The notes beneath the pieces are model-generated. The model was given only the letters and a program-made list of their open reading frames with translations. It was not told the DNA's origin and searched no databases. A stretch of 64,000 bases of DNA from IMG/VR virus record IMGVR_UViG_3300042519_001716; one strand, 5' to 3'. Below are positions 8,629 through 63,481 of this stretch, in pieces. This stretch comes from a virus (Duplodnaviria > Heunggongvirae > Uroviricota > Caudoviricetes). The position numbers were made by a program, and so were the translations under genes. Every line of letters starts with the position of its first letter. Within the stretch, counting starts at the first letter, position 1.

Positions 8629-8645
8629 TCCGCCAGTCGGGCTAG

Positions 8646-8690: not shown

Positions 8691-8692
8691 AT

Positions 8693-15679: not shown

Positions 15680-17818
15680 TTATATTAATTTTTTTGGTTG
15701 ATAATCAAAGTCAATTGGTTTATGGTTTTTGTTTCCCCAGTATCCATTTCCTTCCCATTGGTATTGGAAGCTAAGGTCTAGTTCTGAGTTAAGTCTTCTT
15801 TCTTCTGCCATTAACATATCAAATTCTTCATGTGATCTACCATTTTCTCCCCAGATTGGTTTTGCGTGTACTCTTGCTCGTACGGCCGCGTTTACCTTTA
15901 TATGAGAAAAATCTACGGTTTTAAATGGCGTTTGTTTTTCAATATTAGATTCCGGTTGTTTAAAATTAAAATCACATTTATATTTCCAGTTTCCATCTCT
16001 ATCTATAATAAACTTATGGTTGGCCCAGAATGGCCCCACGTTTCTTTCTCCGAATTCAACCAGATCCAATTGTTGATCAAACTTTATATCCAATGAGAAT
16101 CCACCTCTGGTTCTCCATAACATTCTGAATAGTACAAACATTTCATTTACCAGAGTATTTGCAAATGGGTGCATGTTTGGTTGTATAATCCGGTAGTCAA
16201 ACTGCTCGTATTCAATTTCATTTAATGTGGATCGATCAAAAATGTTTAATACATAGTGATCTCTTATTAGGTTTGGTCTATGTGGAACATGTACATGATT
16301 AATGGTTACTAAGTTTTGTAAGAATATGGCAAATGATTTGATTCTACATAGCACGTGTATCTTTGTTAACCTAAAGTCTTTGGTCATCCATTGATCCATG
16401 AAGAAGTGTGGTGATACCCCATATCTATCAGGATTTTGACCAACCACCGTATTCATCCCCATACCGAATCCAAATCCCGCAGCTATTGTTAATATGTTTT
16501 GATTTCTATTTCTCCATATGAATGTTAGCGTGTCCGAGAAGTCTTGGTAGTCTTCAGTTGGGAATCCAACAATCCAATTGGTAAACGCGCTTATACCGAC
16601 AATCCTTCCAGATTCCATGTTCTGTTCCATCTCCAGTATGGTTACGCCCTTGGCCATATCATTCAATACTTTCTGGCTTCCCGATTCAATTCCATAGTTA
16701 AGTGCCTCACAACCAGAACCCCTTAGATCCCAATAGAAATCCAGATCCATTCTTCCATCACATCTACAATACCCGGTCCAATGTAATTTTATATCCTTTG
16801 CGATGATGGCCTTGCAGAACGCCCTTAGTTCAGAAAGATTTCCATTTACCAAGCTATCAATAAACCATACAACATCCGTACCTTTGCTATAATATAAATG
16901 TTCAATCTCCGCTAGTGCATCTGTGGCCATCCTTTGTCTATACTTCCAGAAGTGTGTCTCCTCACAGAATGTACATTTGGCAACACAACCTCTGCTGAAC
17001 TCGGTATTGATTCCATTTGGATAAACATATTCATTAAAATCAAAATCGCTGTAGTCAGGTAGCGGAAGATTATTTAAATCCAACCTTTGCTTTTCTGGTT
17101 GTGATAGTATTTGAATTTCATTATGCACAACACCATTCTCCACCTCATCTAATATCTGTAACAATATGGCTTCGCCCTCACCAATGACAGAGTAATCAAT
17201 TAAACCTTTTGGATAGTCATCTTTAAATTGATGTATTCTTAATACCGCATTGGGACCGCCGATAGCGATCTTAATGTTTGGCATAAGTCTTTTTAATTCG
17301 GTGGCCACCCATTTAACTGGCTCCTCATTGCAATAGTACATGGTAAACCCAACCACATCCGGCTTCCAATCAACAATCTGTTGGATATACTGTCGAAGCA
17401 CCGGCTCAATATGCGGATGCAACTCCGTATAATATGTTTTCTCTAACCATTTCCATTCCTTTGCCCCATCCCATGGATCAAAATCAATCTTATTTTCTCT
17501 AATTAATTCTCTAAAAACATTATGTATCTTTATATTTAAATCCAAGCATTTGGTTTCATATCCGGAATGCTTTGCAACGGAAGCCAATCTCGCCGTGTTG
17601 AATGGTGGGAAATTTGGGGACCACTCCGGTAATAACATTAAAAACAATCTTGTTTTCTTTGTTGCTGGAATGATATCAATGGTGGTTAGATTACCTTGCA
17701 CCTTGTTCTTTGCAAAGGGAGCAATCGCTTCCATCATCGCCACATGTTTGTCCTCCGAATCTGGGGTTTTTATTCTTGGCTTGGCCTCGTCTTTTTTGAA
17801 ATTATATAAATCGCTCAT
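15680..17818 (-). CDS. B12-binding-domain radical SAM enzyme with ~300-aa C-terminal extension of unknown function
   Basis: Rossmann-like B12-binding region (VVGFTMYY..IKIAIGGPNA) followed by CVAKCTFCEE (CxxxCxxC) radical SAM motif; 712 aa. Confidence 0.75.
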   Translation of the reverse strand: MSDLYNFKKDEAKPRIKTPDSEDKHVAMMEAIAPFAKNKVQGNLTTIDIIPATKKTRLFLMLLPEWSPNFPPFNTARLASVAKHSGYETKCLDLNIKIHNVFRELIRENKIDFDPWDGAKEWKWLEKTYYTELHPHIEPVLRQYIQQIVDWKPDVVGFTMYYCNEEPVKWVATELKRLMPNIKIAIGGPNAVLRIHQFKDDYPKGLIDYSVIGEGEAILLQILDEVENGVVHNEIQILSQPEKQRLDLNNLPLPDYSDFDFNEYVYPNGINTEFSRGCVAKCTFCEETHFWKYRQRMATDALAEIEHLYYSKGTDVVWFIDSLVNGNLSELRAFCKAIIAKDIKLHWTGYCRCDGRMDLDFYWDLRGSGCEALNYGIESGSQKVLNDMAKGVTILEMEQNMESGRIVGISAFTNWIVGFPTEDYQDFSDTLTFIWRNRNQNILTIAAGFGFGMGMNTVVGQNPDRYGVSPHFFMDQWMTKDFRLTKIHVLCRIKSFAIFLQNLVTINHVHVPHRPNLIRDHYVLNIFDRSTLNEIEYEQFDYRIIQPNMHPFANTLVNEMFVLFRMLWRTRGGFSLDIKFDQQLDLVEFGERNVGPFWANHKFIIDRDGNWKYKCDFNFKQPESNIEKQTPFKTVDFSHIKVNAAVRARVHAKPIWGENGRSHEEFDMLMAEERRLNSELDLSFQYQWEGNGYWGNKNHKPIDFDYQPKKLI

Positions 17819-25427: not shown

Positions 25428-25976
25428 CTAATCAATTTGATACCAAAGATAATTTAGATACTTATGTGTTTCACTATTTAAAGCTCTCCTAATTTCTTTT
25501 GATCTATTTTTTAATTTTTGTGCTGTTCTTTCCTCAGGTAAAACCAAACTCTTAGCGGCACTATGTTTTGTATTGAATATGACCTCTTCTTTTGTTAAGA
25601 GATCTATTCTTTTTATTTTTACCGGTGAGCAATGGGTATACCCCAACACATTAATAGCGTGGTCTCTGTTTTCTTCATCATTGCTCCATTTCAAATTTTC
25701 TAAAACATTGTTTGTTTTATTACCATCCCAATGATTAACCTGATCATACTTATCTGGATCTGGATTGGGTGAAAAGGATTCCAACAATAGTATGTGTACT
25801 CTATGTTTTTTACCAACACCGTTTTTACTCAATTCTATTCTGTGATAACCATCTTCAGTAAGGAACGGTTTGATAAATTTATTTGACCTAATACTAAAGA
25901 TCTGACCATTTTCGGTAATTGTGTAATGTCCTTTGTAATTCTTTACATTTTTCATTTTAATCTCTGAGTTTTCCAT
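25428..25976 (-). CDS. HNH homing endonuclease
   Basis: HYTITENGQIFS..GYHRIELSKNG..HRVHILLLESF..VNHWDGNKTNNVLENLKW. Confidence 0.7.
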   Translation of the reverse strand: MENSEIKMKNVKNYKGHYTITENGQIFSIRSNKFIKPFLTEDGYHRIELSKNGVGKKHRVHILLLESFSPNPDPDKYDQVNHWDGNKTNNVLENLKWSNDEENRDHAINVLGYTHCSPVKIKRIDLLTKEEVIFNTKHSAAKSLVLPEERTAQKLKNRSKEIRRALNSETHKYLNYLWYQID

Positions 25977-25988
25977 TTTGTTTTATTT

Positions 25989-26960
25989 TTATAGTTCGTA
26001 CTTCATTCTGGGAACGAAAACATCTTCATCATCTTCCATCTCGTTTTTCCAAAAATCTTTTGGTAGCTTAGAAATGAATGTTATATCTTCATTTTCATTA
26101 TCAATCCTTATTTCAATTATCTTATGGCCGTCGTTAACCTTTTCTTGAATTTTAAGTTCAACCAATTCAACAAGGTCTTCATAATAATCACAAAACCATT
26201 CTCCGCCAGTATTTCTATCCTTTTCGTTAAAGAAATCATGTAACTCTCTTTCAAGCCTAACACATAATTTTGTTGTCATGGTCCAAGCTCTTAATGCTTT
26301 AACACACATTGGTGATAGTGTTCCACCACTCCTTTTATCAATTGATAACATATCCATTCTATCTGAAACATTTTTACCTATACCAATTTTTTTATCATAA
26401 TGTTTCATTTGAAACTTCTTTGGTCTTTTGTGTGCCATCTTGTCACCCCACTCGGCAATATATAATGAACAGGTTGTTATCTTTTCATTATAGAGACATT
26501 CATCTTCCGAATCTAATATCTTCTCGTCATATATTTTATACCCATTTTTATCTAATGTGTAGTTTTTAAAAGAATCTATTCTAAATTTAAACCCATAACT
26601 GTTGTATGCTTTAATACATTCATAGTTATTTAATTGCTTTTCTAATTCTTTAGCTGTTATAGACGGTGACTCACCGGTGATCTTTTGATTTAGATCGTCT
26701 ATGTTTAATAACGCAATAACATCTCTAATTTCATCTTTAATTGTTTCCGAGATTTCATATACCGAATTTTTTGTTCCACCAGCATCAATAATTTCTCTCT
26801 CTCTTAATAAATTATTCCAGGATAATCTGGATAAAAAAGTGTAATCACATTGAATCTCTTCCACACATCTCAATATGATGTACCATTCATAATAGCCTTG
26901 AGATTTTAGATGTTCATAAATAAATTTCGTGTCTGAACTAGATAGGTAAATTGTTTTCAT
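25989..26960 (-). CDS. hypothetical protein
   Basis: ORF track, 323 aa. Confidence 0.5.
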   Translation of the reverse strand: MKTIYLSSSDTKFIYEHLKSQGYYEWYIILRCVEEIQCDYTFLSRLSWNNLLREREIIDAGGTKNSVYEISETIKDEIRDVIALLNIDDLNQKITGESPSITAKELEKQLNNYECIKAYNSYGFKFRIDSFKNYTLDKNGYKIYDEKILDSEDECLYNEKITTCSLYIAEWGDKMAHKRPKKFQMKHYDKKIGIGKNVSDRMDMLSIDKRSGGTLSPMCVKALRAWTMTTKLCVRLERELHDFFNEKDRNTGGEWFCDYYEDLVELVELKIQEKVNDGHKIIEIRIDNENEDITFISKLPKDFWKNEMEDDEDVFVPRMKYEL

Positions 26961-27179: not shown

Positions 27180-27578
27180 TTAGTTGGTTTTTTCATTTTG
27201 TTTCCTTCTTTTTTTAGCTCTAAACTTTCTTGCATGTTCAAGATTTTCACTTGGTGTTACCCATTCAAGATTCGTTGTTTTATTGTTTCTGGTATTCATA
27301 TTTTTATGATTAACCTGAACATTTTTTTTCCTCGGTTTTTTTAAAAACATTTCAGCAACCAGCCTATGTAAATAATATTTTTTATTTGTACCATCAGGTT
27401 TTAGTAATGTCACTCTACTATATTCAACAGCAGCGCTCATATCTCTCCATGATTTAATTTCGTTCCCTGTAACTGTGTTTAAAATCCTACCACTTCTAGT
27501 GATTAAATACTTACCTTTAAATCCATCAATTTTAATTGGTTTTGCCGCTCTCTTGGGAAACCTTGTTAATGTTTTCAT
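27180..27578 (-). CDS. HNH homing endonuclease
   Basis: YLITRSGRI..HRLVAEMFL..VNHKNMNTRNNKTTNLEWVT. Confidence 0.7.
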   Translation of the reverse strand: MKTLTRFPKRAAKPIKIDGFKGKYLITRSGRILNTVTGNEIKSWRDMSAAVEYSRVTLLKPDGTNKKYYLHRLVAEMFLKKPRKKNVQVNHKNMNTRNNKTTNLEWVTPSENLEHARKFRAKKRRKQNEKTN

Positions 27579-36401: not shown

Positions 36402-39400
36402 CTATCTTTTTTTAGCCAACTTTAATGTTTCACCTGTAGCTGGATCAAATCTAAACCAATCTTGGTTTGCATTCTGAACCGTATATGTTTGTTTATTTTC
36501 AGGTGACACTCCAACAGCATAAAATTGAGGGTGAAGAATTGTTTCTCCAGTTCTTTTAAGTAACCCCCACAACCCATCTTCGGTTTTAACAATTATATTA
36601 CCGTTTTTATCTACTGGCGAATTTTCAACAAAACGTGATAGGAATGGTACTGACTCGGTACAAGAAAATAAAGATCTTTTTATTCCTCTTGATCCAATAA
36701 TCGCAATTACTGTGTCCTCATCAAATTTCTTAAAACCATGATCAATGTAATCACAGAATGTGGTATATATACTAAAAAAGTTTTGTGATATTGATCTTAG
36801 ACTTTCAATAAATACCATTTTAGATTGGCTAATAGATGATGAATCATAAACTTGATCAAAATTACTTTTAAGTAAATCATTTGATTTAGCCCCAAAAAAA
36901 GATGTAAATGTGGATTTTTCACCAGTGTTTAATGATTCAGCATCATTAATAATATTGATAACAACATCGTCAGTAAATTTAGTTAAAAGTTCAGTCTGAT
37001 TATTTAATTCAATTGACTTCTTAAGTAATTTTAGTTTAACGTTATTTGGATACTGAGTGAAATTAAGCTCGCCTCCAATAACAGCATCAATGATACCTGG
37101 CCAAGCGCTTTCATCATTAATATTATATTTTAATGCTGGATTATTATCATACACTCTTTTTAAATCAGCAGGTGATAGATCTGCTAACTGAAAATTATCT
37201 TCATATCTATGTACACCTTCTCTTGTGAGGCTTGTTACAGGAAATGTTGTATTAGTTAAAAGATCAATAATTTGATTGTGAAATCTTGATGTAGGTTTTT
37301 TATTACCGTGTCTGTGAAAATCACCAACAATACCACCACGTCTATAATCTAATGTCATTAACGATTCACCCTCACCAAAAGCATTTACTCTTCTGAATGA
37401 TATCAACTCACCGTTATTACTTGCTCTACCGCAATGTCCCATTCTAGCTTGTTCATCTGAACAATAGCTCTTGTGTAGATTAACCCAATAATAACCAACA
37501 CCGTCAGCATTTCTATAATCAATAAAAACATCACCAGTCTCTTTATAATCAGTGTCTTTTCTTACTTCTAATGATTCATGCCATTCTTCTGCCTGATCAT
37601 AAGCCATTTGAAATGTGAGATCGCGAATGTTTAATTGTTCTCTTCTTGGTGCACTAACCCAGTGCATAATATATTGATACATGGGTTTAATCCCTTGATT
37701 CCATTGTACAAATCCTTCAGGTGTCTTTTCGTTTAGTTGACTAATGATAGATTCTTTTAAATCATCATCATCCCCTTGTCGAACAATTTCTCTATTTTGA
37801 CCCTTTTCAACTTGATCAATGATAAATTTAACAAACGTATCTGCAATCCAGATTGATAGTTTTTTATTTAAACCGTGAAATTCATTAACCCAATCTTCAC
37901 TAAAACCAAATGTGTTTATGATTGCCTGTCTTTTGTCTGCCTCTAACAATAATGATTCATTTAATGTTTCGGTTTTTGTTTGAGATAAACTTGCGTAAAC
38001 AGATTGATTTCTTTTTCTTATAGAAGATATTAAATTCTTTAATCCAACTTCGTATGTGCCGGCAGTCGCATAATTATTACCATCTTCGTTTTTAAAGTCA
38101 TTTACTAAGTCAGAAGCTGTTTTACCTCTAACCAAATATCTTCTAGCTAATAAATCATAGTAAGCATCAACACCCGCTTCAACGGTTGGAAAAGTTTTTG
38201 AACCAGTTTCAGTGTTACCAACATTAAATGGGTTGTTAGTTCTTCTTGGTCTACTATTACTAGATGAACCGATACCACCTTCTAGTGTTAATTGTGCCAG
38301 AGCTAATTCTGGTGGAACATATTTTCTATATTGTCTGTAAGCCCTCTCCGCGCTATTGGCTAACATATCACCACTAACAACCGCATTGGGATCTCTTTGT
38401 CTAATAAAATTATCCGAAATATCTCTATATGCTCTCTTACCTTCGTTAGTTAATAAATCAAGATCGGTAAAATCAGCACTACCACCACTTGATACCGCAG
38501 GATCAACATGTTTTTTTAAATCATCTGATGTGACACCTTTATCTAAAAGATTATCGATCAATGTTTTAACCATACTAACAGTAATTGTTGCCCCACCAAT
38601 AACATTCGCAGATCCTTTAGTGGCATAATACCCACCGATTGACGTACCAAAATATTCAAGAGGATTAACTCTATTACCATCTTTTTTTAGTGTTAAATGT
38701 AGGTGCGGGCCTTGTGAATTACCAGAGCCTGGTGCCCCCACAACACCACCTGAAAGACCAATGATATCACCTTGTTTGATAACATCACCACTCTTAACAC
38801 CAACATTAGATAGGTGACAATAGCTACTAACAAAACCATCAGCATGAGAAACTGACACACCATCACCACATCTAGAATCTAATGATCCAGCAGCAATAAC
38901 CTTACCGTCTGCTATTGATTTAATTGGTGTGCCATTTTTAGCTGGTATGTCAATACCTTTATGTGCACCACTTGAACGTTTTTCATCCCAACGATAAGTT
39001 TTACCAGATTCAATTGGTAGTGGCGGCATCAAAGCAGCTTCATTTAAATCATTAGTAGTATTATCTGCAGTATCATCAAAGTCTACAATATTTTTATCCC
39101 TCTTATATTTGTTTACTGCCGCAGCGGTTTCTGGACCGAATAAACCATCCGTTCCAAATCTAGGTAGTGCATACCCCAGGATTTGCAATCCTATTTGTAC
39201 CGCCTCAACCGCTTGTTGACGAGTCATTGTACCTAACTTCTGTTCACTAATATCAGAATCAATACCTTTTAATATTTTAAAAAAATCATCTACATCATCT
39301 CCAATAAAGTCGGCTTTGGTTGGCTCATCTACAGCTTTTTTCTCAACATCGGTCTCCAAACCAGAAATAAATTGTTTTCCGGCTTCAATACCTTTATTAA

Positions 39401-39512
39401 TTAAATTAGATCCTTTAGCGATTAAATCGTCTAACTCATCTTCATTTAACCCTTCTTTAGCTATTTTTAATTTAATCCTAGCTATTTGATCTTCTGTAAG
39501 TACAATTCTCAT
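36402..39512 (-). CDS. large multidomain peptidoglycan hydrolase (PG-binding + M23 endopeptidase + GH73 glucosaminidase-like + long C-terminal region), likely virion-associated lysin
   Basis: GTDGLFGPETAAAVNKY (PG_binding_1), HKGIDI..GPHLHL (M23), NNPFNVG..EAGVDAYYDLL (glucosaminidase-like); 1036 aa. Confidence 0.7.
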   Translation of the reverse strand: MRIVLTEDQIARIKLKIAKEGLNEDELDDLIAKGSNLINKGIEAGKQFISGLETDVEKKAVDEPTKADFIGDDVDDFFKILKGIDSDISEQKLGTMTRQQAVEAVQIGLQILGYALPRFGTDGLFGPETAAAVNKYKRDKNIVDFDDTADNTTNDLNEAALMPPLPIESGKTYRWDEKRSSGAHKGIDIPAKNGTPIKSIADGKVIAAGSLDSRCGDGVSVSHADGFVSSYCHLSNVGVKSGDVIKQGDIIGLSGGVVGAPGSGNSQGPHLHLTLKKDGNRVNPLEYFGTSIGGYYATKGSANVIGGATITVSMVKTLIDNLLDKGVTSDDLKKHVDPAVSSGGSADFTDLDLLTNEGKRAYRDISDNFIRQRDPNAVVSGDMLANSAERAYRQYRKYVPPELALAQLTLEGGIGSSSNSRPRRTNNPFNVGNTETGSKTFPTVEAGVDAYYDLLARRYLVRGKTASDLVNDFKNEDGNNYATAGTYEVGLKNLISSIRKRNQSVYASLSQTKTETLNESLLLEADKRQAIINTFGFSEDWVNEFHGLNKKLSIWIADTFVKFIIDQVEKGQNREIVRQGDDDDLKESIISQLNEKTPEGFVQWNQGIKPMYQYIMHWVSAPRREQLNIRDLTFQMAYDQAEEWHESLEVRKDTDYKETGDVFIDYRNADGVGYYWVNLHKSYCSDEQARMGHCGRASNNGELISFRRVNAFGEGESLMTLDYRRGGIVGDFHRHGNKKPTSRFHNQIIDLLTNTTFPVTSLTREGVHRYEDNFQLADLSPADLKRVYDNNPALKYNINDESAWPGIIDAVIGGELNFTQYPNNVKLKLLKKSIELNNQTELLTKFTDDVVINIINDAESLNTGEKSTFTSFFGAKSNDLLKSNFDQVYDSSSISQSKMVFIESLRSISQNFFSIYTTFCDYIDHGFKKFDEDTVIAIIGSRGIKRSLFSCTESVPFLSRFVENSPVDKNGNIIVKTEDGLWGLLKRTGETILHPQFYAVGVSPENKQTYTVQNANQDWFRFDPATGETLKLAKKR

Positions 39513-39532: not shown

Positions 39533-39751
39533 CTAGGTAATTTGATCTTTATCATTACCATTATCTTCATTATTCCAATTTAACCAATCATCCCCTTTAT
39601 AATCCGGGTGATTTTTCTTCATGTAATCAATCCCAACCACCCATCTCCAAGAGATTAGTCCAACAATAATAAAGATTAATCCAAAAACTGGTAAGTATTC
39701 CATATAGTTATTTTTTAGTTTTATTATGAGGTTTAGGTCTACCGTTTTCAT
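39533..39751 (-). CDS. small membrane protein
   Basis: one TM helix, 72 aa. Confidence 0.4.
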   Translation of the reverse strand: MKTVDLNLIIKLKNNYMEYLPVFGLIFIIVGLISWRWVVGIDYMKKNHPDYKGDDWLNWNNEDNGNDKDQIT

Positions 39752-40070
39752 CTAATAAAACGAAGACTATCTTGTCAATTTTAATAATAGATTGTTTAGT
39801 TTTCTTATTTCTAACATCACAGCAGATTGTTACTGATGTTGTCCCAAATTTAACCAAGTCCATTCCAAACTCGATTACATCACCACTCTTTGCTGTGGCC
39901 ACGAAATCAATCTCAGACATTATCTTAGTAACAATATTAGAACTATCTAATTGACAGATGGCATATATTGCAGCCTCCTCGTCAATCCATTGTAACAATC
40001 TACCACCAAACAAGGTTCCTCTGGGGTTTAAATCTTCTGGTTTAATTAATTTCCTGGTTCTATATATCAC
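39708..40070 (-). CDS. hotdog-fold acyl-CoA thioesterase (YciA/4HBT-like)
   Basis: LNPRGTLFGGRLLQWIDEEAAI matches the thioesterase superfamily signature. Confidence 0.6.
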   Translation of the reverse strand: MIYRTRKLIKPEDLNPRGTLFGGRLLQWIDEEAAIYAICQLDSSNIVTKIMSEIDFVATAKSGDVIEFGMDLVKFGTTSVTICCDVRNKKTKQSIIKIDKIVFVLLDENGRPKPHNKTKK

Positions 40071-40594
40071 TATCTATTTAATTTCGTTATGCATTCATCA
40101 ACCTTATCTCTCAACCTACCACCAAATCCATGATCACCATCTACCGATACGTGTCTCCACATTGCAACTCTTGGTGACAACCACTTGAACGCATGGTATA
40201 GATCTAGATCATCAATTGCTATCCAATTAGAAATCTTATTATCTTTAACCCACTTTGCAATTTCTAACGCCCTTTCATGTTCTAATGACGACCTACTCAT
40301 TTTATTCCATAAGTCCTGATGTGTAGTTATATCAATTAATCGGGCGGTTATACCATAGTGCCAGAAAATTCGTTTCATCTGATTGAATGTAAAATGCTTT
40401 TTCCAATCCGAACTAAGTACTAATTCAGCGTTTGTTTCCTCACATATTTTTTGTAGTGCTTCGCAGTCTTCTTTAACCCAAGGGTAGGGTATTTGAAAAT
40501 CTTCTGCGCCACCTGTTATAGTGACCTTACCATCTCTCCAAGTTCCCCAAGCTAATGGGCCATCGACATCAATGAATATTATTTTTCTTCTCAT
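40070..40594 (-). CDS. HAD-superfamily hydrolase-like protein
   Basis: IIFIDVDGPL (motif I-like) and WIAIDDLD (motif IV-like). Confidence 0.45.
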   Translation of the reverse strand: MRRKIIFIDVDGPLAWGTWRDGKVTITGGAEDFQIPYPWVKEDCEALQKICEETNAELVLSSDWKKHFTFNQMKRIFWHYGITARLIDITTHQDLWNKMSRSSLEHERALEIAKWVKDNKISNWIAIDDLDLYHAFKWLSPRVAMWRHVSVDGDHGFGGRLRDKVDECITKLNR

Positions 40595-40904
40595 TTCTTC
40601 TTTTAGTTAGTAACCTAAATGTATTAAAAATACCTAACAACATAAAGAGTTGTACTGGCCAAAATGGAAAATTTTGTAGCTCATGTAACATCCAAAATAT
40701 ATTCATGAAGACCCATGAAAATAATGTAATGTTAGTGTCTCTATTATGTTTTTCCTTTATTAGGAGATATATTGTAAGAAGTGATGTCGGGAACACCATT
40801 AAAGTTGCTAACCACGTAAACTTCAGACACCAAAATATGTCCTTTAATAACCACGAAGTTACATGGATTTCTTGTATATCAAAATAAAAATTACGAATTC
40901 TCAT
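40569..40904 (-). CDS. membrane protein
   Basis: three hydrophobic helices. Confidence 0.4.
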   Translation of the reverse strand: MRIRNFYFDIQEIHVTSWLLKDIFWCLKFTWLATLMVFPTSLLTIYLLIKEKHNRDTNITLFSWVFMNIFWMLHELQNFPFWPVQLFMLLGIFNTFRLLTKRRNEKKNNIH

Positions 40905-41316
40905 CTATGTACTGAAGTTGTGGTGTCCACACACCTTCTGATACAATTGTTGGGTTATTGTTTCTGTCGATCATAACCCACTCAACCTTAACAATACCCC
41001 ATGGTTCAAATTGTTCTAACACATCTTGTAGAGTAAATGATTTGCAGCTATAGATATCGAACTGAGCCATCGCGGGCTCATGATGATCCCATATGTGTAT
41101 TGACGCGTGTGATGTGGCTAATGTAACAGTTCCAGTTAATCCCTCATTACCAGGAAAGTCTACATAAACACTGGTTGGGCCAGCAACAACTTCCATTTTA
41201 ACTTTATGAACTAATTGGATAAACCAATCATTTAAAACGCTAACCTTTTTTGGTGGGTTATTAAGCCAAACCTTCATTAAAAGGTGTTGGTGATAAGGTA
41301 CAAATTCTTCCTGCAT
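40891..41316 (-). CDS. speD: S-adenosylmethionine decarboxylase-like protein (SpeD/SpeH class)
   Basis: LATSHASIHIWDHHE resembles the pyruvoyl AdoMetDC ESHISIHTWPE processing/active site. Confidence 0.55.
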   Translation of the reverse strand: MQEEFVPYHQHLLMKVWLNNPPKKVSVLNDWFIQLVHKVKMEVVAGPTSVYVDFPGNEGLTGTVTLATSHASIHIWDHHEPAMAQFDIYSCKSFTLQDVLEQFEPWGIVKVEWVMIDRNNNPTIVSEGVWTPQLQYIDENS

Positions 41317-41400
41317 TAATATATTTTTTACTATACATATATATCATAAAATTGGATTTTTCTACGATATTTAAAATATATTTTATATTACTTACCTCAC

Positions 41401-42081
41401 TTATTTTTTGTATTTTTTAAAGTTATCTATGAATGGTTTTTCATATTTCTTTAATTCTTTAGTATCTAAACCGTTATATAAACCAGTTGACATAAAGGCT
41501 TGAATTTCATCATCAATTATTTTTTTGTCATCAATATACCCCATTTTGATAATCTTTTTTTTGAGTTTTTCATAATGAGATGGATTAATTTCAGAAATTA
41601 AATTGTCACAAATCTTTTTATATTCCTTATTTGTATAATATAATCCATGGGCGATTTCGTGATTCATTGTACTTGATTTAAAACTATCCGCACCAATCAA
41701 ATACCATTTTTTTCTTGGTTCCTCAAATCTTAGTGGATAATTCTCACAATGATACCATATGTTACTCATTATTTCGTCATATGGCCCCTTGTCTTTATCA
41801 AAGACATTCATCGCTTTGTCAACAATATTTGATGGTATATTAAACCCAGACCAATCTTCGGGATATGTAAACAAATCTTTGTTCCATCTGTTTTTATAAA
41901 TCATCATGAATTTTTCCCAGGTGAAAAAATGCCCTCTTATTTCTTTATATGGGGACTCATAAAATTCTTGATATCTACAAAACAACATTGTTCTTTGATA
42001 ATCATCTTTGATTGATACTGCGAATATTTGTGGTATAATTTGTTTTACTTCACCAACAACATATTCATTTTTAATTTTCAT
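41401..42081 (-). CDS. hypothetical protein with HExxH motif (NHEIAHGL)
   Basis: ORF track, 226 aa. Confidence 0.45.
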   Translation of the reverse strand: MKIKNEYVVGEVKQIIPQIFAVSIKDDYQRTMLFCRYQEFYESPYKEIRGHFFTWEKFMMIYKNRWNKDLFTYPEDWSGFNIPSNIVDKAMNVFDKDKGPYDEIMSNIWYHCENYPLRFEEPRKKWYLIGADSFKSSTMNHEIAHGLYYTNKEYKKICDNLISEINPSHYEKLKKKIIKMGYIDDKKIIDDEIQAFMSTGLYNGLDTKELKKYEKPFIDNFKKYKK

Positions 42082-42099
42082 ATAAAATGTTTAAAGATA

Positions 42100-42429
42100 T
42101 TATAGAGAAAAACTTTCTCCACATCCACATGTGCGTGATGCGTTGGGGTTTACCCAATGAAACCCCTTTCCATTTAGACCGTCGGAAAATTGTAATTCCG
42201 TTCCGTATAAATAAAGAACAGATTTTTTATCAATTATAACACTCAGCGGCCCAAGATCAACAACCTCATCCATATCCGTAACCTGGGTATCAAAATCCAT
42301 AACATATGAAAGACCACTACATCCACCACCCTTAACACCAACCCTTAGTTTATGTGTATCTGGTGCTATCTGTTGTGAAGCCATTAACGTTACTAGATGA
42401 TTTAATGCGTTGTCACTTATTGTTATCAT
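42100..42429 (-). CDS. iscA: A-type iron-sulfur cluster carrier (IscA/SufA/HesB family)
   Basis: LRVGVKGGGCSGLSY and C-terminal CGCGESF conserved cysteines. Confidence 0.8.
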   Translation of the reverse strand: MITISDNALNHLVTLMASQQIAPDTHKLRVGVKGGGCSGLSYVMDFDTQVTDMDEVVDLGPLSVIIDKKSVLYLYGTELQFSDGLNGKGFHWVNPNASRTCGCGESFSL

Positions 42430-42641
42430 TATTTAATGCCAGATTTATTTAATAAACTATCTGTAGTTTTTTTATCTATTTTAATTTCACTATTGGTCTG
42501 AGTCTCTTTTCTTAATCTTGTTAACTCTTTTTGTTGGAAGTAACATATCAATAGCAAAGCCACAGCCCCACCCATTGTTATATTCTTTTGATTCTTTTTT
42601 AAAAATTCTATCATAATTAATTTATATGTGTGTTTCTTCAA
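42429..42641 (-). CDS. hypothetical small protein between iscA and iscU
   Basis: 70 aa; overlaps neighbours by 1 and 20 nt. Confidence 0.4.
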   Translation of the reverse strand: MKKHTYKLIMIEFLKKNQKNITMGGAVALLLICYFQQKELTRLRKETQTNSEIKIDKKTTDSLLNKSGIK

Positions 42642-43032
42642 AGGTAATTTCTTCTAACCCCTGTTTTTTTCTGTAATCATTTATTGCAGATTTTATTGCA
42701 TCTTCCGCTAAAACTGAACAATGTATTTTAACTGGAGGTAAACTTAACTCCTCAACTAAATCCATATTATCAATTGTAATCGCCTCATCTAACGATTTAC
42801 CTTTTAACCATTCTGTGGCAACCGAAGATGATGCTATTGCTGATCCACAACCAAATGTTTTAAACTTAGCATCAATAATTATATTATCCACCACCTCAAT
42901 TTGTAACCTCATTACATCTCCACATTCTGGGGCACCAACTAAGCCGGTACCAACATTTGATTTAGTTTTATCTAATGTTCCAATGTTTTTAGGGTTTTCG
43001 TAATGATCTATTACTTTTTGTGAATATGACAT
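42622..43032 (-). CDS. iscU: Fe-S cluster scaffold IscU/NifU
   Basis: GAPECGDVMRLQI, FGCGSAIASSS and PPVKIHCSVLAEDAI signature blocks. Confidence 0.85.
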   Translation of the reverse strand: MSYSQKVIDHYENPKNIGTLDKTKSNVGTGLVGAPECGDVMRLQIEVVDNIIIDAKFKTFGCGSAIASSSVATEWLKGKSLDEAITIDNMDLVEELSLPPVKIHCSVLAEDAIKSAINDYRKKQGLEEITFEETHI

Positions 43033-49337: not shown

Positions 49338-50501
49338 TTAATTACTTAATGGTGCTTTTATTGCTGGGTGTGATTGATAATTTTCCAATATTACATCATG
49401 ATCTCCAAATGAAAATATACCATCTCTAACATGTACTGTTGGTAGATTGAATGGTTCTCTTTTTATTTGTTCCTTAGCTTGTTCAATATGGTTTGAATAT
49501 AAATGCACATCACCTAAATTACCAATTAATTCATCGGGAACCATATTCATTTCATCCGCAATCATTTTTAATAATAAACCATAAGACGCTATGTTGAACG
49601 GTAACCCTAAGAATGTATCAACTGAACGTTGGTTCCACATTAGTGAGATTGCCCTTTTAGGAATATTGTATACTTGTAATTCTTCTCTTAATCCACCACC
49701 GAATGGAACAATGTCATCAACCATCAATTGAAACTTCTCTTCTCCTACTTTTTTCTTTAATAAATCCCACATCTCTTCTCCCGTTAATTTTCTAGTGTAT
49801 ACTTGAAACCCATAATGACAAGGCGGAAGAACCATATGTTCTAACTCACCAACATTCCAAGCACTTACCATCAATCGTCTTGAGTCTGGGTTTGTTTTAA
49901 GTTCATCAATTAAGTTTTGAATTTGGTCAATTGTTTTATCACCCTCAACATATGTATCGTTTCCAGTTAATGGATCTTTCAACGTGGTCTTAATTAATGT
50001 TTTGGTGTTCCACTGTCTCCACTGTGCACCATATATGGGACCTAACTCACCCCACTCTTCGGCAAATTCGTCATCTGTTTTAATTCTTTCAATGAATTCT
50101 TCTTGAGTTAATGGTGTTAAGTCATCAGGATTACTAAACATAATTTCAATATGTGGTTGCATTCCCATTATGTCACCACACATATATCCATCAATAAGTT
50201 CAGTTACTTCTTTAGTGTAGTTCTTGTAAGCATCACCATTCCAAATGTTACATCCGTTCATAACTAGATACTTGATGTTGGTGCTCCCACTTAAAAACCA
50301 AATTAACTCGGTCACCATTGTCTTCCAAGCCATCTTCTTAGTTGTAAGTAATGGGAACCCTTGTGACATTCTATGCCGAATTTGTCTACCAAATACTGAA
50401 ATGGTACCTGTACCAGTCCTATCACTTTTTGTGATACCATTATCTAAAATATCTTGTAATAATTCTTGATATTTTGAATCCAATGTATTCATATTTCTCA
50501 T
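49338..50501 (-). CDS. thyA: thymidylate synthase (ThyA family) with two internal insertions
   Basis: DRTGTGT, PCHY catalytic Cys, GLPFNIASY (Asn retained), GDVHLYSNH; ~45- and ~35-aa in-frame insertions relative to E. coli ThyA. Confidence 0.85.
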   Translation of the reverse strand: MRNMNTLDSKYQELLQDILDNGITKSDRTGTGTISVFGRQIRHRMSQGFPLLTTKKMAWKTMVTELIWFLSGSTNIKYLVMNGCNIWNGDAYKNYTKEVTELIDGYMCGDIMGMQPHIEIMFSNPDDLTPLTQEEFIERIKTDDEFAEEWGELGPIYGAQWRQWNTKTLIKTTLKDPLTGNDTYVEGDKTIDQIQNLIDELKTNPDSRRLMVSAWNVGELEHMVLPPCHYGFQVYTRKLTGEEMWDLLKKKVGEEKFQLMVDDIVPFGGGLREELQVYNIPKRAISLMWNQRSVDTFLGLPFNIASYGLLLKMIADEMNMVPDELIGNLGDVHLYSNHIEQAKEQIKREPFNLPTVHVRDGIFSFGDHDVILENYQSHPAIKAPLSN

Positions 50502-52450: not shown

Positions 52451-53806
52451 ATGAAAAAAAAGATTTTATTATTATCTGATGATTTAAGAATGACATCTGG
52501 AATCGCAACTATGTCAAAGGAAATTGTTATGGGAACAATTGATAAGTATGATTGGATACAACTAGGCGCAGCAATATCACATCCAGAGATTGGAAAAATT
52601 GTTGATGTTAATGATGATATCAGAAAGAGAACAGGTGTTGAAGACGCTAATCTTAAGATAATTCCATACAATGGTTATGGTGATATTAACATCCTTAGAA
52701 AGTTAATAAATGAAGAAAAGCCAGATGCTATCTTACACTTCACCGATCCGCATTATTGGCAATGGTTATATGATAATGAACATGAGATCAGACAACACAC
52801 ACCAATATTATATTATCACATATGGGATGATTTACCAGACCCACAATACAATAGAGATGTTTTTGAATCTTGTGATTGGTTAGGTTGTATATCTAAACAA
52901 ACATATGGAATTGTACATCGTGTTGGTAAGAGAACTGATAAAGTAACATTCAAACCATTGGAAGATTGGCAGATAAGTTATGTTCCACATGGTATCAATC
53001 CAGAAACATTTAAACCACTGGATAAAGTTTCAGATGAAATAAAAAATATTATCTTTGGTGATAAGAAGTATGATTTTGTTTTATTTTTTAACAGTAGAAA
53101 CATTAGAAGGAAACAACCAAGTGATGTTATCTATTCATTTAAATTGTTTTGTGATCAACTACCAAAAGAAAAAGCAGATAAGTGTTTATTATTAATGCAC
53201 ACAGCCGCTGTTGATGAGAACGGAACAGACTTACCAGCAGTTATCGAAGCTCTTTGTCCATATGATGTTAAGTTCACAGGATTAAAGTTAGAACAAGATA
53301 AGTTAAATGAAATATATAACCTAGTTGATTGTACTATCAACATCGCTAACAATGAAGGGTTTGGTTTAACAACAGCAGAATCATTGATGGCTGGTACACC
53401 AATTATTGTTAATGTGACTGGTGGCTTACAAGATCAATGTGGATTTGAATATAGTGCAGATGATTATATTTCAGTTGGAACGTTACATAATAAAAAAGTA
53501 CACAGCTCAATATCACATGGCGAATGGGTAGAACCGATTTGGTCATCAGCTATAAATTTAAATGGATCTGTACCAACCCCATACATTTTTGATGACAGGG
53601 TAAACGATGATGATGTTGCAAATGTTATCATGAAGATGTATAAGATAGGTAAGAAAAAAAGAAAAGCAAGAGGTTTGCTAGGTAGAGAGTTTATGATTAA
53701 CAATCTATCAAATAAAATAATGTGTGATAAAATGTCTGAAGGGATTGAGCAAGCAATCAGTAACTTCAAGCCGAGAAAGAAATTTGATTTATATAAAATT
53801 ATATGA
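52451..53806 (+). CDS. GT4-family (GT-B) glycosyltransferase
   Basis: NEGFGLTTAESLMAGTPIIVNVTGG matches the retaining GT4 E-x7-E/donor-binding signature. Confidence 0.6.
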   Translation: MKKKILLLSDDLRMTSGIATMSKEIVMGTIDKYDWIQLGAAISHPEIGKIVDVNDDIRKRTGVEDANLKIIPYNGYGDINILRKLINEEKPDAILHFTDPHYWQWLYDNEHEIRQHTPILYYHIWDDLPDPQYNRDVFESCDWLGCISKQTYGIVHRVGKRTDKVTFKPLEDWQISYVPHGINPETFKPLDKVSDEIKNIIFGDKKYDFVLFFNSRNIRRKQPSDVIYSFKLFCDQLPKEKADKCLLLMHTAAVDENGTDLPAVIEALCPYDVKFTGLKLEQDKLNEIYNLVDCTINIANNEGFGLTTAESLMAGTPIIVNVTGGLQDQCGFEYSADDYISVGTLHNKKVHSSISHGEWVEPIWSSAINLNGSVPTPYIFDDRVNDDDVANVIMKMYKIGKKKRKARGLLGREFMINNLSNKIMCDKMSEGIEQAISNFKPRKKFDLYKII

Positions 53807-55056
53807 GAAAACCATTTTTATTATTTAGAGGGCCAGTAAAAACAAGAAGTGGATATGGTGCACACTCAAGAGATTTGCTAGAAGCGTTACATAAGATGGA
53901 TATGTTTGATATTAAAATAGATAGCTGTTCATGGGGATCAACACCGTTAACCGCGTTGGAGGATGATAACATGTTTCATAAATGGATTGATTCAAATATT
54001 GTAACCAATATAAATGTTCAGCCAGATTTTTATGTGCAAGTGACAGTACCTAACGAATTTCAAACATTAGGTAAAATAAACATAGGAGTAACCGCCGGTA
54101 TTGAAACAACTGTAGCGCCAAAGAATTGGATAGACGGTTGTAACAAGATGGATATGGTTATAACAACATCTGAATTTTCAAAGGATGTTTTATTGTCAAC
54201 TGTTTATAATGAAAATGATAATGTTACTGGTAAACTAATAAAACAATATAGAATTGAAAAACCATTGTTAGTATTGTTTGAGGGTGTTGACACATCTATA
54301 TACAATAACGAGTATACTGGAATCGACCTAGACATAAAAGAAGATTTTGCTTATCTGTTTGTTGGTCATTGGTTGAAAGGAGATACTGGTCAAGACAGAA
54401 AAGATGTGGGGATGTTGATTAGATGTTTTACAGAAGCATTTAAAGATCAAGAAGATCAACCAGCACTTGTTTTAAAGACATCTGCGGCCTCTTTCTCTAT
54501 TAAACAAAGGGAAGAGTTCAGAAAGAAAATTGAAGGCCTTGTTGGTCAAATTGATAACCCACCTTCGATATACCTTTTGTTCGGTGATTTAAGTAACAAA
54601 GAGATGAACGAGCTTTATAATCATCCAAAAATAAAAGCTATGGTTACTCTCACCAAGGGTGAGGGATTTGGTAGACCTCTACTAGAATTTACAATGACAG
54701 GTAAACCCGTTATTGCATCTAATTGGTCTGGGCATAAAGATTTTTTACCAATGGATAAAGCTATTATGATTGGTGGTAAACTTACGGATGTAGATCAAAG
54801 TGCTATTGACGATTTTATTATTAAAGGGTCTAAATGGTTCACAGCAAATTATAATGAAGTTGCAGAGGTTTTAAAATTGGTTAAAATAGATTATGAAAAG
54901 TTTTTATCTAAATCAGAAACATTAAGAATTGAAAACAAAGAAAAGTTTTCTATGGAAAAAATGATGGAAAAGTTTAGATCGTTTATCCCAGATGAGGCCA
55001 AAGAAGAACCAATACAAAAGCAATTAAATTTACCTAAATTAAATAAAATAAAGTAG
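53803..55056 (+). CDS. GT-B glycosyltransferase (GT4-like)
   Basis: TKGEGFGRPLLEFTMTGKPVIASNWSG; ATGA overlap with upstream GT. Confidence 0.5.
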   Translation: MRKPFLLFRGPVKTRSGYGAHSRDLLEALHKMDMFDIKIDSCSWGSTPLTALEDDNMFHKWIDSNIVTNINVQPDFYVQVTVPNEFQTLGKINIGVTAGIETTVAPKNWIDGCNKMDMVITTSEFSKDVLLSTVYNENDNVTGKLIKQYRIEKPLLVLFEGVDTSIYNNEYTGIDLDIKEDFAYLFVGHWLKGDTGQDRKDVGMLIRCFTEAFKDQEDQPALVLKTSAASFSIKQREEFRKKIEGLVGQIDNPPSIYLLFGDLSNKEMNELYNHPKIKAMVTLTKGEGFGRPLLEFTMTGKPVIASNWSGHKDFLPMDKAIMIGGKLTDVDQSAIDDFIIKGSKWFTANYNEVAEVLKLVKIDYEKFLSKSETLRIENKEKFSMEKMMEKFRSFIPDEAKEEPIQKQLNLPKLNKIK

Positions 55057-55057
55057 T

Positions 55058-55336
55058 ATGCCAAAAAGGAAAAGAGAATCAATATTTTTAACTACACCTA
55101 CCCCGCAATCATCTTCTTTCACAATTGCTGACGCAAAGTATATTGATACATGTGAATGGTGTTTTCAATTCGATGATGACCAACCGATAGTATTTGCAAA
55201 AGGGTCAAAAAAAGAGTTTGCATCTGAACCTAAAATAAGTTTTACCTTAACAAATAGAACAGATAGTACCATGACTTTTTTTGATGATAAAACAAAAAAG
55301 AAATTAAAGATCTTCACAAGAGAAAAGGCCATTTAA
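55058..55336 (+). CDS. hypothetical protein
   Basis: ORF track, 92 aa. Confidence 0.4.
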   Translation: MPKRKRESIFLTTPTPQSSSFTIADAKYIDTCEWCFQFDDDQPIVFAKGSKKEFASEPKISFTLTNRTDSTMTFFDDKTKKKLKIFTREKAI

Positions 55337-55337
55337 T

Positions 55338-56183
55338 ATGAAAATTTTAGTAACAGGCGGGGCTGGGTTTATTGGTACTAATTTAATTAAAAGATTGGTA
55401 TCTGAGAAACATGATGTTGTTTCACTGGACAATTATGATAGTGGGTCGGTGTCTAACCATATTGATGGGTGTAACTATCATAGTGGCGATATTGAAAGTA
55501 TATCACTTATGGATAAAGATTTTGATTTAATTTATCATTTGGCTGCGCTTAGTAGAATACAACCATCATTTGAAAATCCATCAGAGTTCTTTAGAGTAAA
55601 TGTAATTGGTACTGAGGCTGTATGTGAGTGGGCTAGAAAATTGAATATAAGAGTTGTATACAGTGGGTCATCTTCAAGATGGCACGACCCGTTTCAATCA
55701 CCTTATGCTATGTATAAGAAGTTAGGTGAGGATGTGTGTAAGATGTATAAGAAAGTATTTGGTAGTAAAATTGAAATTACTCGCTTCTACAATGTTTATG
55801 GGCCCAATGAAATAACTGAAGGCAAATGGGCAGCAGTCATTGGTTTATGGAGAGGTCAGGTTAAAAAAAATCACCCTATTACAATTGTGGGTGATGGTAA
55901 ACAACGTAGAGATTTTACACACGTTGATGATATTGTTGATGGGTTAATTAGGATAGGTTTTTCAAATGAAGAACATGAGGATGCGTGGGAATTGGGTACT
56001 GGTTTTAATTATTCCTTAAATGAAGTGGCCTATATGTTTGAACAAAGGTTTAATGCAGTAAAAGTATATATGGCTGAGCAAAAAGGGAATTATAGAGAGA
56101 CTAAACGTGAAAACAACGACGCGTTAAATAGACTAGGATGGTCACCTAAAGACAGACTTAAAAATTATATAGATACTTTATGA
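55338..56183 (+). CDS. NAD-dependent sugar epimerase/dehydratase (extended SDR)
   Basis: MKILVTGGAGFIGTNL Rossmann motif and YAMYKK catalytic YxxxK. Confidence 0.75.
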   Translation: MKILVTGGAGFIGTNLIKRLVSEKHDVVSLDNYDSGSVSNHIDGCNYHSGDIESISLMDKDFDLIYHLAALSRIQPSFENPSEFFRVNVIGTEAVCEWARKLNIRVVYSGSSSRWHDPFQSPYAMYKKLGEDVCKMYKKVFGSKIEITRFYNVYGPNEITEGKWAAVIGLWRGQVKKNHPITIVGDGKQRRDFTHVDDIVDGLIRIGFSNEEHEDAWELGTGFNYSLNEVAYMFEQRFNAVKVYMAEQKGNYRETKRENNDALNRLGWSPKDRLKNYIDTL

Positions 56184-56800
56184 AAATAAGCTTCGCCATT
56201 ACAGTATGTAATGAACTAGAGGAGATAAAAAGATTAGTTCCATTTATACTTGAGCACAAAGGAATTCAGGATGAAATTGTTATTTTATTTGACGATAAAA
56301 ATGGTAACAAAGAGGTACTAGATTTTCTTTTACCTTTTAATATTAAACCCAACGTACAAGTATGGAGAGGTTTAGATTGGGATAACAACTTTGCCGATTG
56401 GAAGAATAAGTTAAACGAGTATTGTACAGGAGATTATATATTTCAGTTAGATGCTGATGAAATGGTTACTGAGTTTTTAATTAAAAATGTAAGTCAAGTA
56501 ATTCAAGAAAATAATGAGGTTGATCTTTTTTATCTAGCAAGGGTTAATACTGTTGATGGTATAACCATGGAACATATTAATAAGTGGAGATGGAATTTGG
56601 ATAAAGAAGGTAGAATTAATTTTCCAGATTATCAAGGTAGGATCTATAAGTCTAATCTTAAATGGGAGGGTAAAGTTCATGAAAAAATAACAGGAGTCAA
56701 ATATTATGCAGTACTACCGTTAGAGGAAGAATATTGTTTGATACATCATAAATCAATTAATAAACAAGAGAGTCAAAACAATTATTATAACACAATTTAA
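56180..56800 (+). CDS. family 2 glycosyltransferase-like protein
   Basis: ISFAITVCNE N-terminus and FQLDADE DxD motif. Confidence 0.5.
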   Translation: MKISFAITVCNELEEIKRLVPFILEHKGIQDEIVILFDDKNGNKEVLDFLLPFNIKPNVQVWRGLDWDNNFADWKNKLNEYCTGDYIFQLDADEMVTEFLIKNVSQVIQENNEVDLFYLARVNTVDGITMEHINKWRWNLDKEGRINFPDYQGRIYKSNLKWEGKVHEKITGVKYYAVLPLEEEYCLIHHKSINKQESQNNYYNTI

Positions 56801-56804
56801 TCAA

Positions 56805-58106: not shown

Positions 58107-58107
58107 A

Positions 58108-58764: not shown

Positions 58765-58765
58765 T

Positions 58766-63358: not shown

Positions 63359-63390
63359 TTTGTTTTTGTTTAAGAAAAGTTTATAAAATT

Positions 63391-63481
63391 GCGGGGAGGA
63401 AGAGATTCGGACTCTCGATTGAATGTTAAGTCCAATAGCAGCTTCGGAGGCTGTCGGTTTAAACCACTCACCCACCTCCCC
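63391..63481 (-). promoter_or_regulatory. structured 5' leader candidate (outer GGGGAGG/CCTCCCC stem enclosing two or three internal hairpins)
   Basis: GCGGGGAGG at 63391-63399 pairs with CCTCCCC at 63475-63481; inner GAGA/TCTC, CAGC/GCTG and GGTTTAAACC elements. Confidence 0.4.

Follow-up and report, generated by a model that had tools for sequence, protein, structure and literature searches.

The subject of this report is a 64,000-nucleotide stretch of viral DNA (IMG/VR record IMGVR_UViG_3300042519_001716), referred to here as the window, with positions counted from its first letter. Packed tightly on its - strand between positions 39533 and 43032 are nine open reading frames (ORFs), two of which encode the iron-sulfur (Fe-S) cluster assembly scaffold IscU and an A-type Fe-S carrier. 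The segment is likely an accessory island of a large phage from fresh water that combines T4-like with kyanovirus-like traits, and its core, iscU and the carrier gene, is likely to have come from Bacteroidota and to feed the supply of Fe-S clusters during infection. The two core genes are as follows.

42622..43032, - strand: iscU, Fe-S cluster assembly scaffold, 136 residues (TIGR01999, PF01592, structure alignments)
42100..42429, - strand: A-type Fe-S carrier of the IscA/ErpA/SufA superfamily, 109 residues (TIGR00049, PF01521)

The IscU sequence scores 212.5 bits against TIGR01999, which is above the equivalog cut-off of 192.4, and 168 bits against PF01592 (cut-off 22; E = 1e-49). It aligns over its full length with the solved structures of the H. 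influenzae, E. coli, and human proteins (E = 2e-60). From this alignment it can be seen that Cys 37, Asp 39, Cys 62, His 104, and Cys 105 are retained, the reference ligands in the E. coli protein being Cys 37, Asp 39, Cys 63, His 105, and Cys 106. The chaperone-binding LPPVK motif, which is recognized by HscA, is positioned at residues 98-102. Neither the ligands nor this motif vary among 73 phage and 80 Bacteroidota homologues, and the dN/dS ratio is 0.05.

The carrier passes the subfamily cut-off of TIGR00049 (108.4 versus 58.8 bits) and that of PF01521 (58.6 versus 26.3 bits). It falls below the equivalog cut-offs for IscA (TIGR02011, 84.8 versus 150.6 bits), ErpA (NF010147, 93.8 versus 117 bits), and SufA (82.2 versus 136.2 bits), and thus the accurate name is A-type carrier rather than IscA specifically. 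The nearest solved structures are those of HI1723 (2APN, E = 1.7e-21) and E. coli IscA (1R94, E = 1.9e-19), with which Cys 37, Cys 101, and Cys 103 of the C-x(n)-C-G-C pattern align. These cysteines are kept in 72 to 73 of 73 phage homologues and do not vary in 80 bacterial ones, the lone exception being one phage carrier with a glycine at the position of Cys 37. The dN/dS ratio is 0.18.

An initial annotation of this DNA, prepared from the sequence alone, had recognized both genes, and every ORF named in it is present on the - strand at the coordinates it gave. The profile scores and ORF listing bear out its IscU and A-type carrier; its narrower label of IscA stands only at the level of the A-type carrier family. 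It had also called for verification of three cysteines in each protein, and all are present. Across the named genes, the dN/dS ratios, calculated pairwise against related viral loci, range from 0.05 to 0.18. Together with conservation in related viral contigs, these values indicate that the ORFs are real genes and not chance reading frames. Judged from their sequences, iscU and the carrier gene are intact Fe-S assembly genes carried by a phage, and no catalytic residue has been lost.

Relatives of this IscU are encoded on at least 581 IMG/VR contigs, and the best 80 of them, which are 84-100% identical, served as the viral comparison set. The carrier gene lies downstream of iscU on the same strand in all 75 informative loci; the remaining five end within a few hundred bases of iscU and were left out of the count. 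The median identity among related loci is 88% for IscU versus 56% for the carrier, and the neighbors are likewise less conserved than IscU. The same IscU protein, with the same neighbors, recurs on metagenome contigs that are independent of one another and 51-169 kb long, and IscU relatives were found on IMG/VR contigs of up to 334 kb. In 26 of the 80 loci, the pair sits in a wholly different neighborhood. None of IscS, HscA, HscB, Fdx, or IscR is encoded in the window or within 8 kb to either side in the 80 viral loci. Note that IscS alongside IscU is a feature of context and does not decide membership in the protein family.

The initial annotation had called phage-encoded scaffold proteins uncommon. 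This holds for cultured phages, where 17 of 50,697 records match IscU, some of them mislabelled bacterial DNA. It does not hold for environmental phages, given the IMG/VR count above. Two records assigned to "Acinetobacter phage MD-2021a" (CAKLQF020000009.1 and CAKLQH020000011.1) are an ordinary segment of bacterial chromosome (ppiD, hupB, iscRSUA-hscBA-fdx, mfd). Such contamination inflates the count of "phage IscU" in the phage collection, and the MD-2021a matches, which contain a complete bacterial isc operon, were dropped as evidence for phage IscU.

These records bring up the question of whether the segment under study might itself be bacterial DNA, either a mis-binned host fragment or the edge of a prophage, given that some IscU records labelled as phage are bacterial operons of the order iscR-iscS-iscU-iscA-hscBA-fdx. 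The segment, however, has no iscS, is bounded on both sides by tens of kilobases of phage-type genes, and recurs in the same arrangement on many independent viral contigs, and the phage sequences form a clade of their own. A bacterial source for the segment is accordingly regarded as exceedingly improbable. The phage-type flanking genes include Kyano_Gp96, T4_Y16D, a T4 denV-like Pyr_excise, HNH/NUMOD4 endonucleases, a thymidylate synthase, and exonucleases. DNA similarity to cultured phages is limited, for this region, to a 346-base stretch of iscU, and bases 1-25000 of the window are without a match; there is thus no close cultured relative.

The origin of the pair was addressed by searching GTDB with one genome per species and using the 80 best IscU matches. 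These are 78-84% identical and are nearly all labelled Bacteroidota, mainly Chitinophagaceae (Sediminibacterium, Ferruginibacter) together with Sphingobacteriales. Among them are Sediminibacterium metagenome-assembled genomes from Lake Mendota, with sample numbers similar to those attached to many viral contigs, and the viral samples appear to be freshwater. In the cellular loci, iscS is found directly upstream of iscU in 76 of 80 cases and an A-type carrier gene downstream in all 80, with hscBA-fdx not within 4 kb of the 80 operons. The cellular order is thus iscS-iscU-iscA, and the phage holds iscU and iscA in operon order without iscS. The Chitinophagaceae and Sphingobacteriales proteins have the same ligands and LPPVK motif as those of the phage, with identities of 78-84% for IscU and 50-60% for the carrier. 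Unlike the phage, the bacteria have iscS, and some phages add an ORF between the pair, a small membrane protein in the window and a ferredoxin in relatives. In a neighbor-joining tree of the concatenated IscU and carrier sequences (245 columns), all 74 phage sequences form one clade. When 22 diverse phage and 22 diverse Bacteroidota sequences were compared with Acinetobacter as the outgroup, the bootstrap value was 85/100 for the phage clade and 36/100 for the bacterial clade. The pair is most likely a fragment of a Bacteroidota iscS-iscU-iscA operon that was taken up once and without the desulfurase.

A second line of evidence regarding the host is provided by the gene leaders. A Shine-Dalgarno-like 4-mer lies upstream of only four of 77 window genes versus 7.6 ± 2.5 expected at random positions, and the leaders contain 50% A and 8% G. 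This pattern is typical of Bacteroidota and their phages, and it thus lends independent support to such a host, which was probably a Chitinophagaceae-like member of the Bacteroidota.

The proposed role of the pair is as follows. The two genes are subject to strong purifying selection, and since their capture they have most likely been retained by many large phages. The phage IscU may dock on the host IscS, the usual partner scaffold of which is ∼80% identical, and take its sulfur to build [2Fe-2S] or [4Fe-4S] clusters. These would then be passed via the phage carrier to apo-proteins, such that Fe-S supply for both phage and host enzymes would be raised or sustained while host gene expression declines. 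Candidate clients include the phage radical SAM (S-adenosylmethionine) enzyme, a dicluster ferredoxin of sister phages, and host enzymes needed for phage replication. A radical SAM enzyme encoded by the phage, as invoked in the initial annotation, does exist in the window and is the only recognizable Fe-S client there.

15680..17818, - strand: B12-binding radical SAM enzyme, 712 residues (PF04055, PF02310)

It scores 46.3 bits against PF04055 and 38.8 bits against PF02310, and its CxxxCxxC motif is located at residues 278-285. Its nearest IMG/VR relatives are 49-68% identical. Adjoining the gene, at 13849-15354 on the - strand, is that for a 501-residue protein (phrog_2319).

Several points weigh against a role in Fe-S supply as just described. 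The gene for the radical SAM enzyme is ∼25 kb from iscU, and the 80 best viral contigs for the two proteins share no member, although most of these contigs are fragments and the lack of overlap therefore says little about co-occurrence. Both the benefit of the pair and its clients are things that we infer, and a phage IscU without an IscS of its own could equally compete with the host scaffold. With respect to origin, the tree was built by neighbor-joining on 245 columns with both sets of taxa picked by similarity to the query, and the host assignment draws on the similarity of one gene pair and on leader composition and is not accompanied by a CRISPR or tRNA match.

The competition just mentioned can be taken further, namely to an antagonistic role in which the phage IscU and carrier dock on the host IscS, fail to deliver productively to host clients, and divert or sequester sulfur and Fe-S clusters, thereby shutting down host Fe-S metabolism or redirecting it to phage enzymes only. 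Indeed, because the phage supplies neither a desulfurase nor chaperones nor a [2Fe-2S] ferredoxin, its scaffold and carrier have to work with the IscS of the host, and the 84-92% identity of IscU, which is far above that of its neighbors, is as expected for a protein that fits a host partner. A pure decoy, however, needs neither cluster ligands nor a transfer partner, whereas the residues of a productive scaffold are all kept (the three cysteines, Asp 39, His 104, and LPPVK), as are the three cysteines of the carrier. The retention of all ligand and transfer residues renders hijacking the less likely explanation, and we judge it to be quite improbable, although it overlaps with the supply role in that redirection of clusters to phage clients belongs to both.

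Additional support for iscU and the carrier gene acting as an Fe-S unit comes from the slot between them. In 36 of the related viral loci, this slot is empty, with a gap of 20 nucleotides or less. Directly after iscU in 33 of the 80 loci, and usually inside the slot, which it occupies in about 30 sister loci, is the gene for a 102-residue dicluster ferredoxin (Fer4_7, 38 bits) with two Cys motifs. The insertion of an Fe-S ferredoxin within the module of sister phages supports the view that the pair functions as such a unit. The ferredoxin is absent from the window and was not found within 4 kb to either side of the 80 Bacteroidota iscSUA operons. In the window and in one other lineage, the slot is filled by a small membrane ORF. 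These occupants are listed below.

8468-8773 of locus L059 and 8422-8724 of locus L023: dicluster ferredoxin, examples
42429..42614 of the window, - strand: small ORF with one predicted transmembrane helix, 61 residues (ATG at 42614) or 70 residues (TTG at 42641), no family

The ATG at 42614 lies past the IscU stop codon and is the start used by metagenome gene callers, and it is probably the correct one. The 70-residue ORF had been described as overlapping both neighbors. The overlap with the carrier gene stands, its stop codon sharing one base with the carrier ATG (TAATG), whereas that with iscU arises only if translation begins at the TTG at 42641. No family was found for this ORF in Pfam, PHROGs, NCBIfam, or PADLOC, and among the 80 viral loci it has homologues only in the related loci L028 (57%) and L076 (46%).

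The remaining genes of the island, and the gene at its border, are as follows.

41401..42081, - strand: HExxH protein, 226 residues (no family match)
40891..41316, - strand: SpeD-fold pyruvoyl-enzyme proenzyme, 141 residues (PF02675)
40569..40904, - strand: multi-pass membrane ORF, 111 residues (conserved in relatives, no family)
40070..40594, - strand: HAD_SAK_2-type HAD-superfamily phosphatase, 174 residues (PF18143)
39708..40070, - strand: hotdog-fold acyl-CoA thioesterase of the YciA/acyl-CoA hydrolase type, 120 residues (PF03061)
39533..39751, - strand: membrane ORF, 72 residues (conserved, closes the island downstream)
36402-39512, - strand: M23 peptidase/glucosaminidase protein, 1036 residues (domain matches)

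Profile searches place six of the nine ORFs of the island, five of them in families and the 226-residue protein by its HExxH motif only. Four genes had been described as next in line after the carrier gene. All four, encoding the HExxH protein, the SpeD-like protein, the HAD hydrolase, and the thioesterase, are present, and the 111-residue ORF between the second and third of them had been overlooked. Scans for promoters and terminators gave counts no higher than those for shuffled sequence, and for this reason no operon boundaries are claimed.

The initial annotation had treated these genes as a single auxiliary metabolic cluster, and this does not hold. Only iscU and the carrier gene are constant. 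Genes for the 226-residue, SpeD-like, and thioesterase proteins are present in 38, 14, and 12 of the 80 related loci, respectively, and variable inserts of 0.3-2.5 kb lie between the flanking genes. The flanking genes come and go, and the segment is thus best described as an accessory island around a two-gene core rather than one pathway. A single co-functional pathway of all seven to nine genes, in which Fe-S assembly, SAM metabolism through S-adenosylmethionine decarboxylase (AdoMetDC), and hydrolysis of CoA-thioesters and phosphate esters would serve the radical SAM enzyme, might be read from the tight same-strand packing with overlapping stops and starts and from the purifying selection on all genes. 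Yet the 226-residue protein, the SpeD-like protein, the HAD phosphatase, and the thioesterase are each missing from most related loci, the inserts interrupt the order, and the pair occupies other contexts in 26 loci. Moreover, the AdoMetDC signature is not found in the SpeD-like protein, and a homologue of the 226-residue protein in Xanthomonas jumbo phage XacN1 is not encoded near any Fe-S gene. The one-pathway explanation is considered highly unlikely. Within the accessory island, the neighbors of the pair would act independently of it.

The SpeD-like protein had been annotated as an AdoMetDC. Its fold and family are supported by a score of 42.4 bits against PF02675 (cut-off 25), and it retains the pyruvoyl-forming Ser 69, His 74, and Cys 91, which correspond to Ser 63, His 68, and Cys 83 of the T. 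maritima enzyme and do not vary in 121 homologues. The proenzyme serine, also singled out for verification in the initial annotation, is therefore present. These features, along with the naming of its relatives as AdoMetDC in PHROGs and GenBank, speak for a genuine AdoMetDC that would provide decarboxylated SAM for spermidine synthesis. The score against TIGR03330, however, is 33.2 bits versus an equivalog cut-off of 75.65, such that the protein fails the AdoMetDC test. The predicted cleavage site is Thr 68-Ser 69 instead of Glu-Ser, and Trp 76-Asp 77 occupies the position of Trp-Pro in the class 1b AdoMetDCs, in the bona fide members of which the proline after the tryptophan is completely conserved (PMC10407285, section 7). 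No spermidine synthase was seen among the annotated genes of the window.

A closer likeness is provided by the pelagiphage HTVC201P protein labelled "AdoMetDC" (AXH71538), which has the same fold, Ser/His/Cys set, Thr-Ser site, Trp-Asp pair, and EPAM insertion. Within the cultured-phage collection, pelagiphage homologues are the only matches to the SpeD-like protein. The alignment with the HTVC201P protein is gapless over 112 residues with 34% identity and 89 bits, versus 14-26 bits for the solved AdoMetDCs. The signature TSH..H.WD..EPAM.Q.D.Y.C is common to the two proteins and shows no variation in the 121 homologues. The HTVC201P enzyme is a pyruvoyl-dependent arginine decarboxylase without AdoMetDC activity, and related freshwater-phage homologues are ornithine decarboxylases (PMC9992855). 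Given the failed equivalog test, the Thr-Ser and Trp-Asp pairs, and the likeness to the HTVC201P enzyme, the AdoMetDC label should be replaced, although the SpeD fold and the Ser/His/Cys set stand. A genuine AdoMetDC is regarded as improbable. The dN/dS ratio is 0.07. The SpeD-like protein is probably an HTVC201P-like pyruvoyl decarboxylase acting on arginine or ornithine rather than on AdoMet, in which case its product would be agmatine or putrescine instead of decarboxylated SAM. In many Bacteroidota, putrescine is derived from agmatine, and a phage arginine decarboxylase would feed that host route.

There are differences from these enzymes as well. HTVC201P and the freshwater-phage ornithine decarboxylases contain 117-122 residues versus 141 in the window protein. 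The ornithine decarboxylase group of SpeDC is characterized by four diagnostic residues, Gln, Thr, Phe, and Tyr (PMC10407285, Fig. 8). HTVC201P and this group have a glutamine five residues before the serine, which the window protein appears to lack, and the phenylalanine after the histidine that seems to be typical of the ornithine decarboxylases is apparently also missing from the window protein. With positions deduced from the Fig. S5 text of PMC10407285, the threonine is present, Val 64 replaces the glutamine at -5, and Ile 75 replaces the phenylalanine at +6. Against a bacterial SpeDC domain, the BLASTP score is 17 bits. The SpeD-fold clade of 130-141 residues to which these features belong (Thr-Ser and Trp-Asp without the Gln and Phe of the ornithine decarboxylases) would, under a broader proposal taken up below, be a new enzyme, and could be a pyruvoyl decarboxylase for which neither AdoMet nor arginine nor ornithine is the substrate.

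The 226-residue protein has no profile match in Pfam, NCBIfam, PHROG, or the PDB. His 141, Glu 142, and His 145, together with Asp 191 and Glu 192, are unvarying in 41 diverse homologues with identities of 30-52%, and no Pfam domain was found in these 41 members other than the zinc-ribbon PF13717 in one. The family comprises at least 1854 clusters at 50% identity for E ≤ 1e-3 and 1192 for E ≤ 1e-10, and the dN/dS ratio of the window gene is 0.11. The AlphaFold2 model, which is a confident one (pLDDT 91, pTM 0.87), has no structural neighbor and no recognizable fold. Gluzincins, which combine HExxH with a downstream glutamate, for example the Pro-Pro endopeptidase PPEP-2 (6FPC), score in the noise range against the protein and provide a lead rather than a classification. 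Our best guess, held with low confidence, is that the protein is a hydrolase that depends on a metal and has an active site distantly resembling that of zincins. A role as an Fe-S assembly factor was considered and dropped, there being no Fe-S genes near two distant homologues, one on a 3.7-kb contig and the other in XacN1. The XacN1 homologue (AP018399, 306771-307415; positions 5001-5645 of locus L171) is labelled "ABC transporter ATP-binding protein", with which its sequence disagrees, and the label looks like a mis-annotation.

The HAD-superfamily protein scores 77.3 bits against PF18143 (HAD_SAK_2; cut-off 27.5), and Asp 9-Val-Asp 11 constitutes the DxD nucleophile motif. It belongs to phrog_1818, a PHROG of unknown function, has a dN/dS ratio of 0.10, and gave no match in NCBIfam and no sequence match in the PDB. 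The thioesterase scores 50.5 bits against PF03061 (4HBT; cut-off 20.6), matches phrog_18230 (E = 8e-38) and the acyl-CoA hydrolase 1VPM (E = 1.8e-13), and lies below the YciA equivalog cut-off (35.9 versus 162 bits); its dN/dS ratio is 0.05. The 111-residue membrane ORF overlaps both of its neighbors by a few codons, is called in the metagenome record L083, and is 73-76% identical in loci L028, L041, L042, and L044, with a dN/dS ratio of 0.16 and no family match in Pfam, PHROGs, NCBIfam, or PADLOC. The 72-residue membrane ORF is present in most related loci with identities of 41-76% and a dN/dS ratio of 0.16, and is without a family match in Pfam, PHROGs, or PADLOC. A search of the flanking genes with PADLOC for defence or anti-defence roles gave no match. 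The 1036-residue protein, the gene for which forms the conserved downstream border of the island, contains a peptidoglycan-binding domain, an M23 peptidase, a glucosaminidase, and a long uncharacterized C-terminal part, and is likely a virion-associated cell-wall hydrolase.

The Fe-S pair is a clear new case of a kind of phage auxiliary gene that was known before, accounts of phage genes for IscU and the carrier dating from 2011-2017 onward (PMC5332604 and earlier virome reports cited there). SufA-type genes are reported for further groups of marine phages (PMC10580990). In T4-like viral genomes from the marine environment, genes for IscU and an A-type carrier occur together with those for radical SAM enzymes (Nishimura et al. 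2017, PMC5332604). These genomes resemble the window in containing the same two families, no desulfurase, and radical SAM enzymes, and the same Fe-S supply role was proposed. They differ in that the marine viral IscU groups with gammaproteobacterial homologues such as those of SAR86, whereas the window pair groups with Bacteroidota. Here the setting is apparently freshwater, the pair is always adjacent in host-operon order, and a ferredoxin gene lies between the two in many relatives. In the cultured-phage collection, Phage C48C1 (Kyanoviridae, OQ984149; 156 kb) encodes a NifU-like scaffold of the IscU type that is 72% identical, with no A-type carrier gene adjoining it; the neighbors encode a DnaB helicase and an endolysin. 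The origin from a Bacteroidota iscSUA operon, the sister modules with a ferredoxin gene, and the unbroken adjacency of the two genes appear to be undescribed in the literature searched. A broader proposal, that iscU and the carrier gene, with or without the ferredoxin gene, constitute a viral cassette for Fe-S maturation that is complete in itself, stems from a single capture from Bacteroidota, and has persisted across many lineages of large and jumbo freshwater phages, with the 226-residue family and the SpeD-fold clade being new enzymes, is viewed as rather unlikely.

None of these findings overturns current understanding. The supply of Fe-S clusters is a bottleneck for many of the enzymes that phages bring or exploit, including radical SAM enzymes, ferredoxins, and some nucleases and reductases. 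The locus shows what a phage needs in order to tap the host ISC system, namely a scaffold and a carrier, and not a desulfurase or chaperones. The pair also serves as a marker for linking phage to host, in this case pointing toward freshwater Bacteroidota, and it provides well-conserved natural variants for probing the compatibility of scaffold and desulfurase. Reinterpreting the "AdoMetDC" protects against an error that is common in phage annotation, and the 226-residue HExxH family constitutes a large, unnamed target for structural genomics.

Other features of the window were noted. Homing-endonuclease-like genes are found on the - strand at 11686-12225, 25428-25976, 27180-27578, and 25989-26960 (NUMOD4/HNH_3, HNH_3, T5orf172/MUG113), and their scattered distribution fits an insertion-rich mosaic genome. 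The thymidylate synthase (49338-50501, - strand, 387 residues) aligns with its PHROG over 386 residues versus ∼280 profile positions, suggesting that it contains an insert of ∼100 residues. A tRNA-Arg (CCG) is predicted at 63391-63481 on the - strand. It overlaps a mechanically called ORF at 62474-63475, and as such the GTG start of the latter is probably wrong. Finally, a block on the + strand at 52451-60954 encodes two Glycos_transf_1 proteins, two Glycos_transf_2 proteins, an NAD-dependent epimerase/dehydratase, a UDP-galactopyranose mutase-like protein (GLF), and a methyltransferase, which suggests phage-encoded modification of a polysaccharide or of DNA with sugars.

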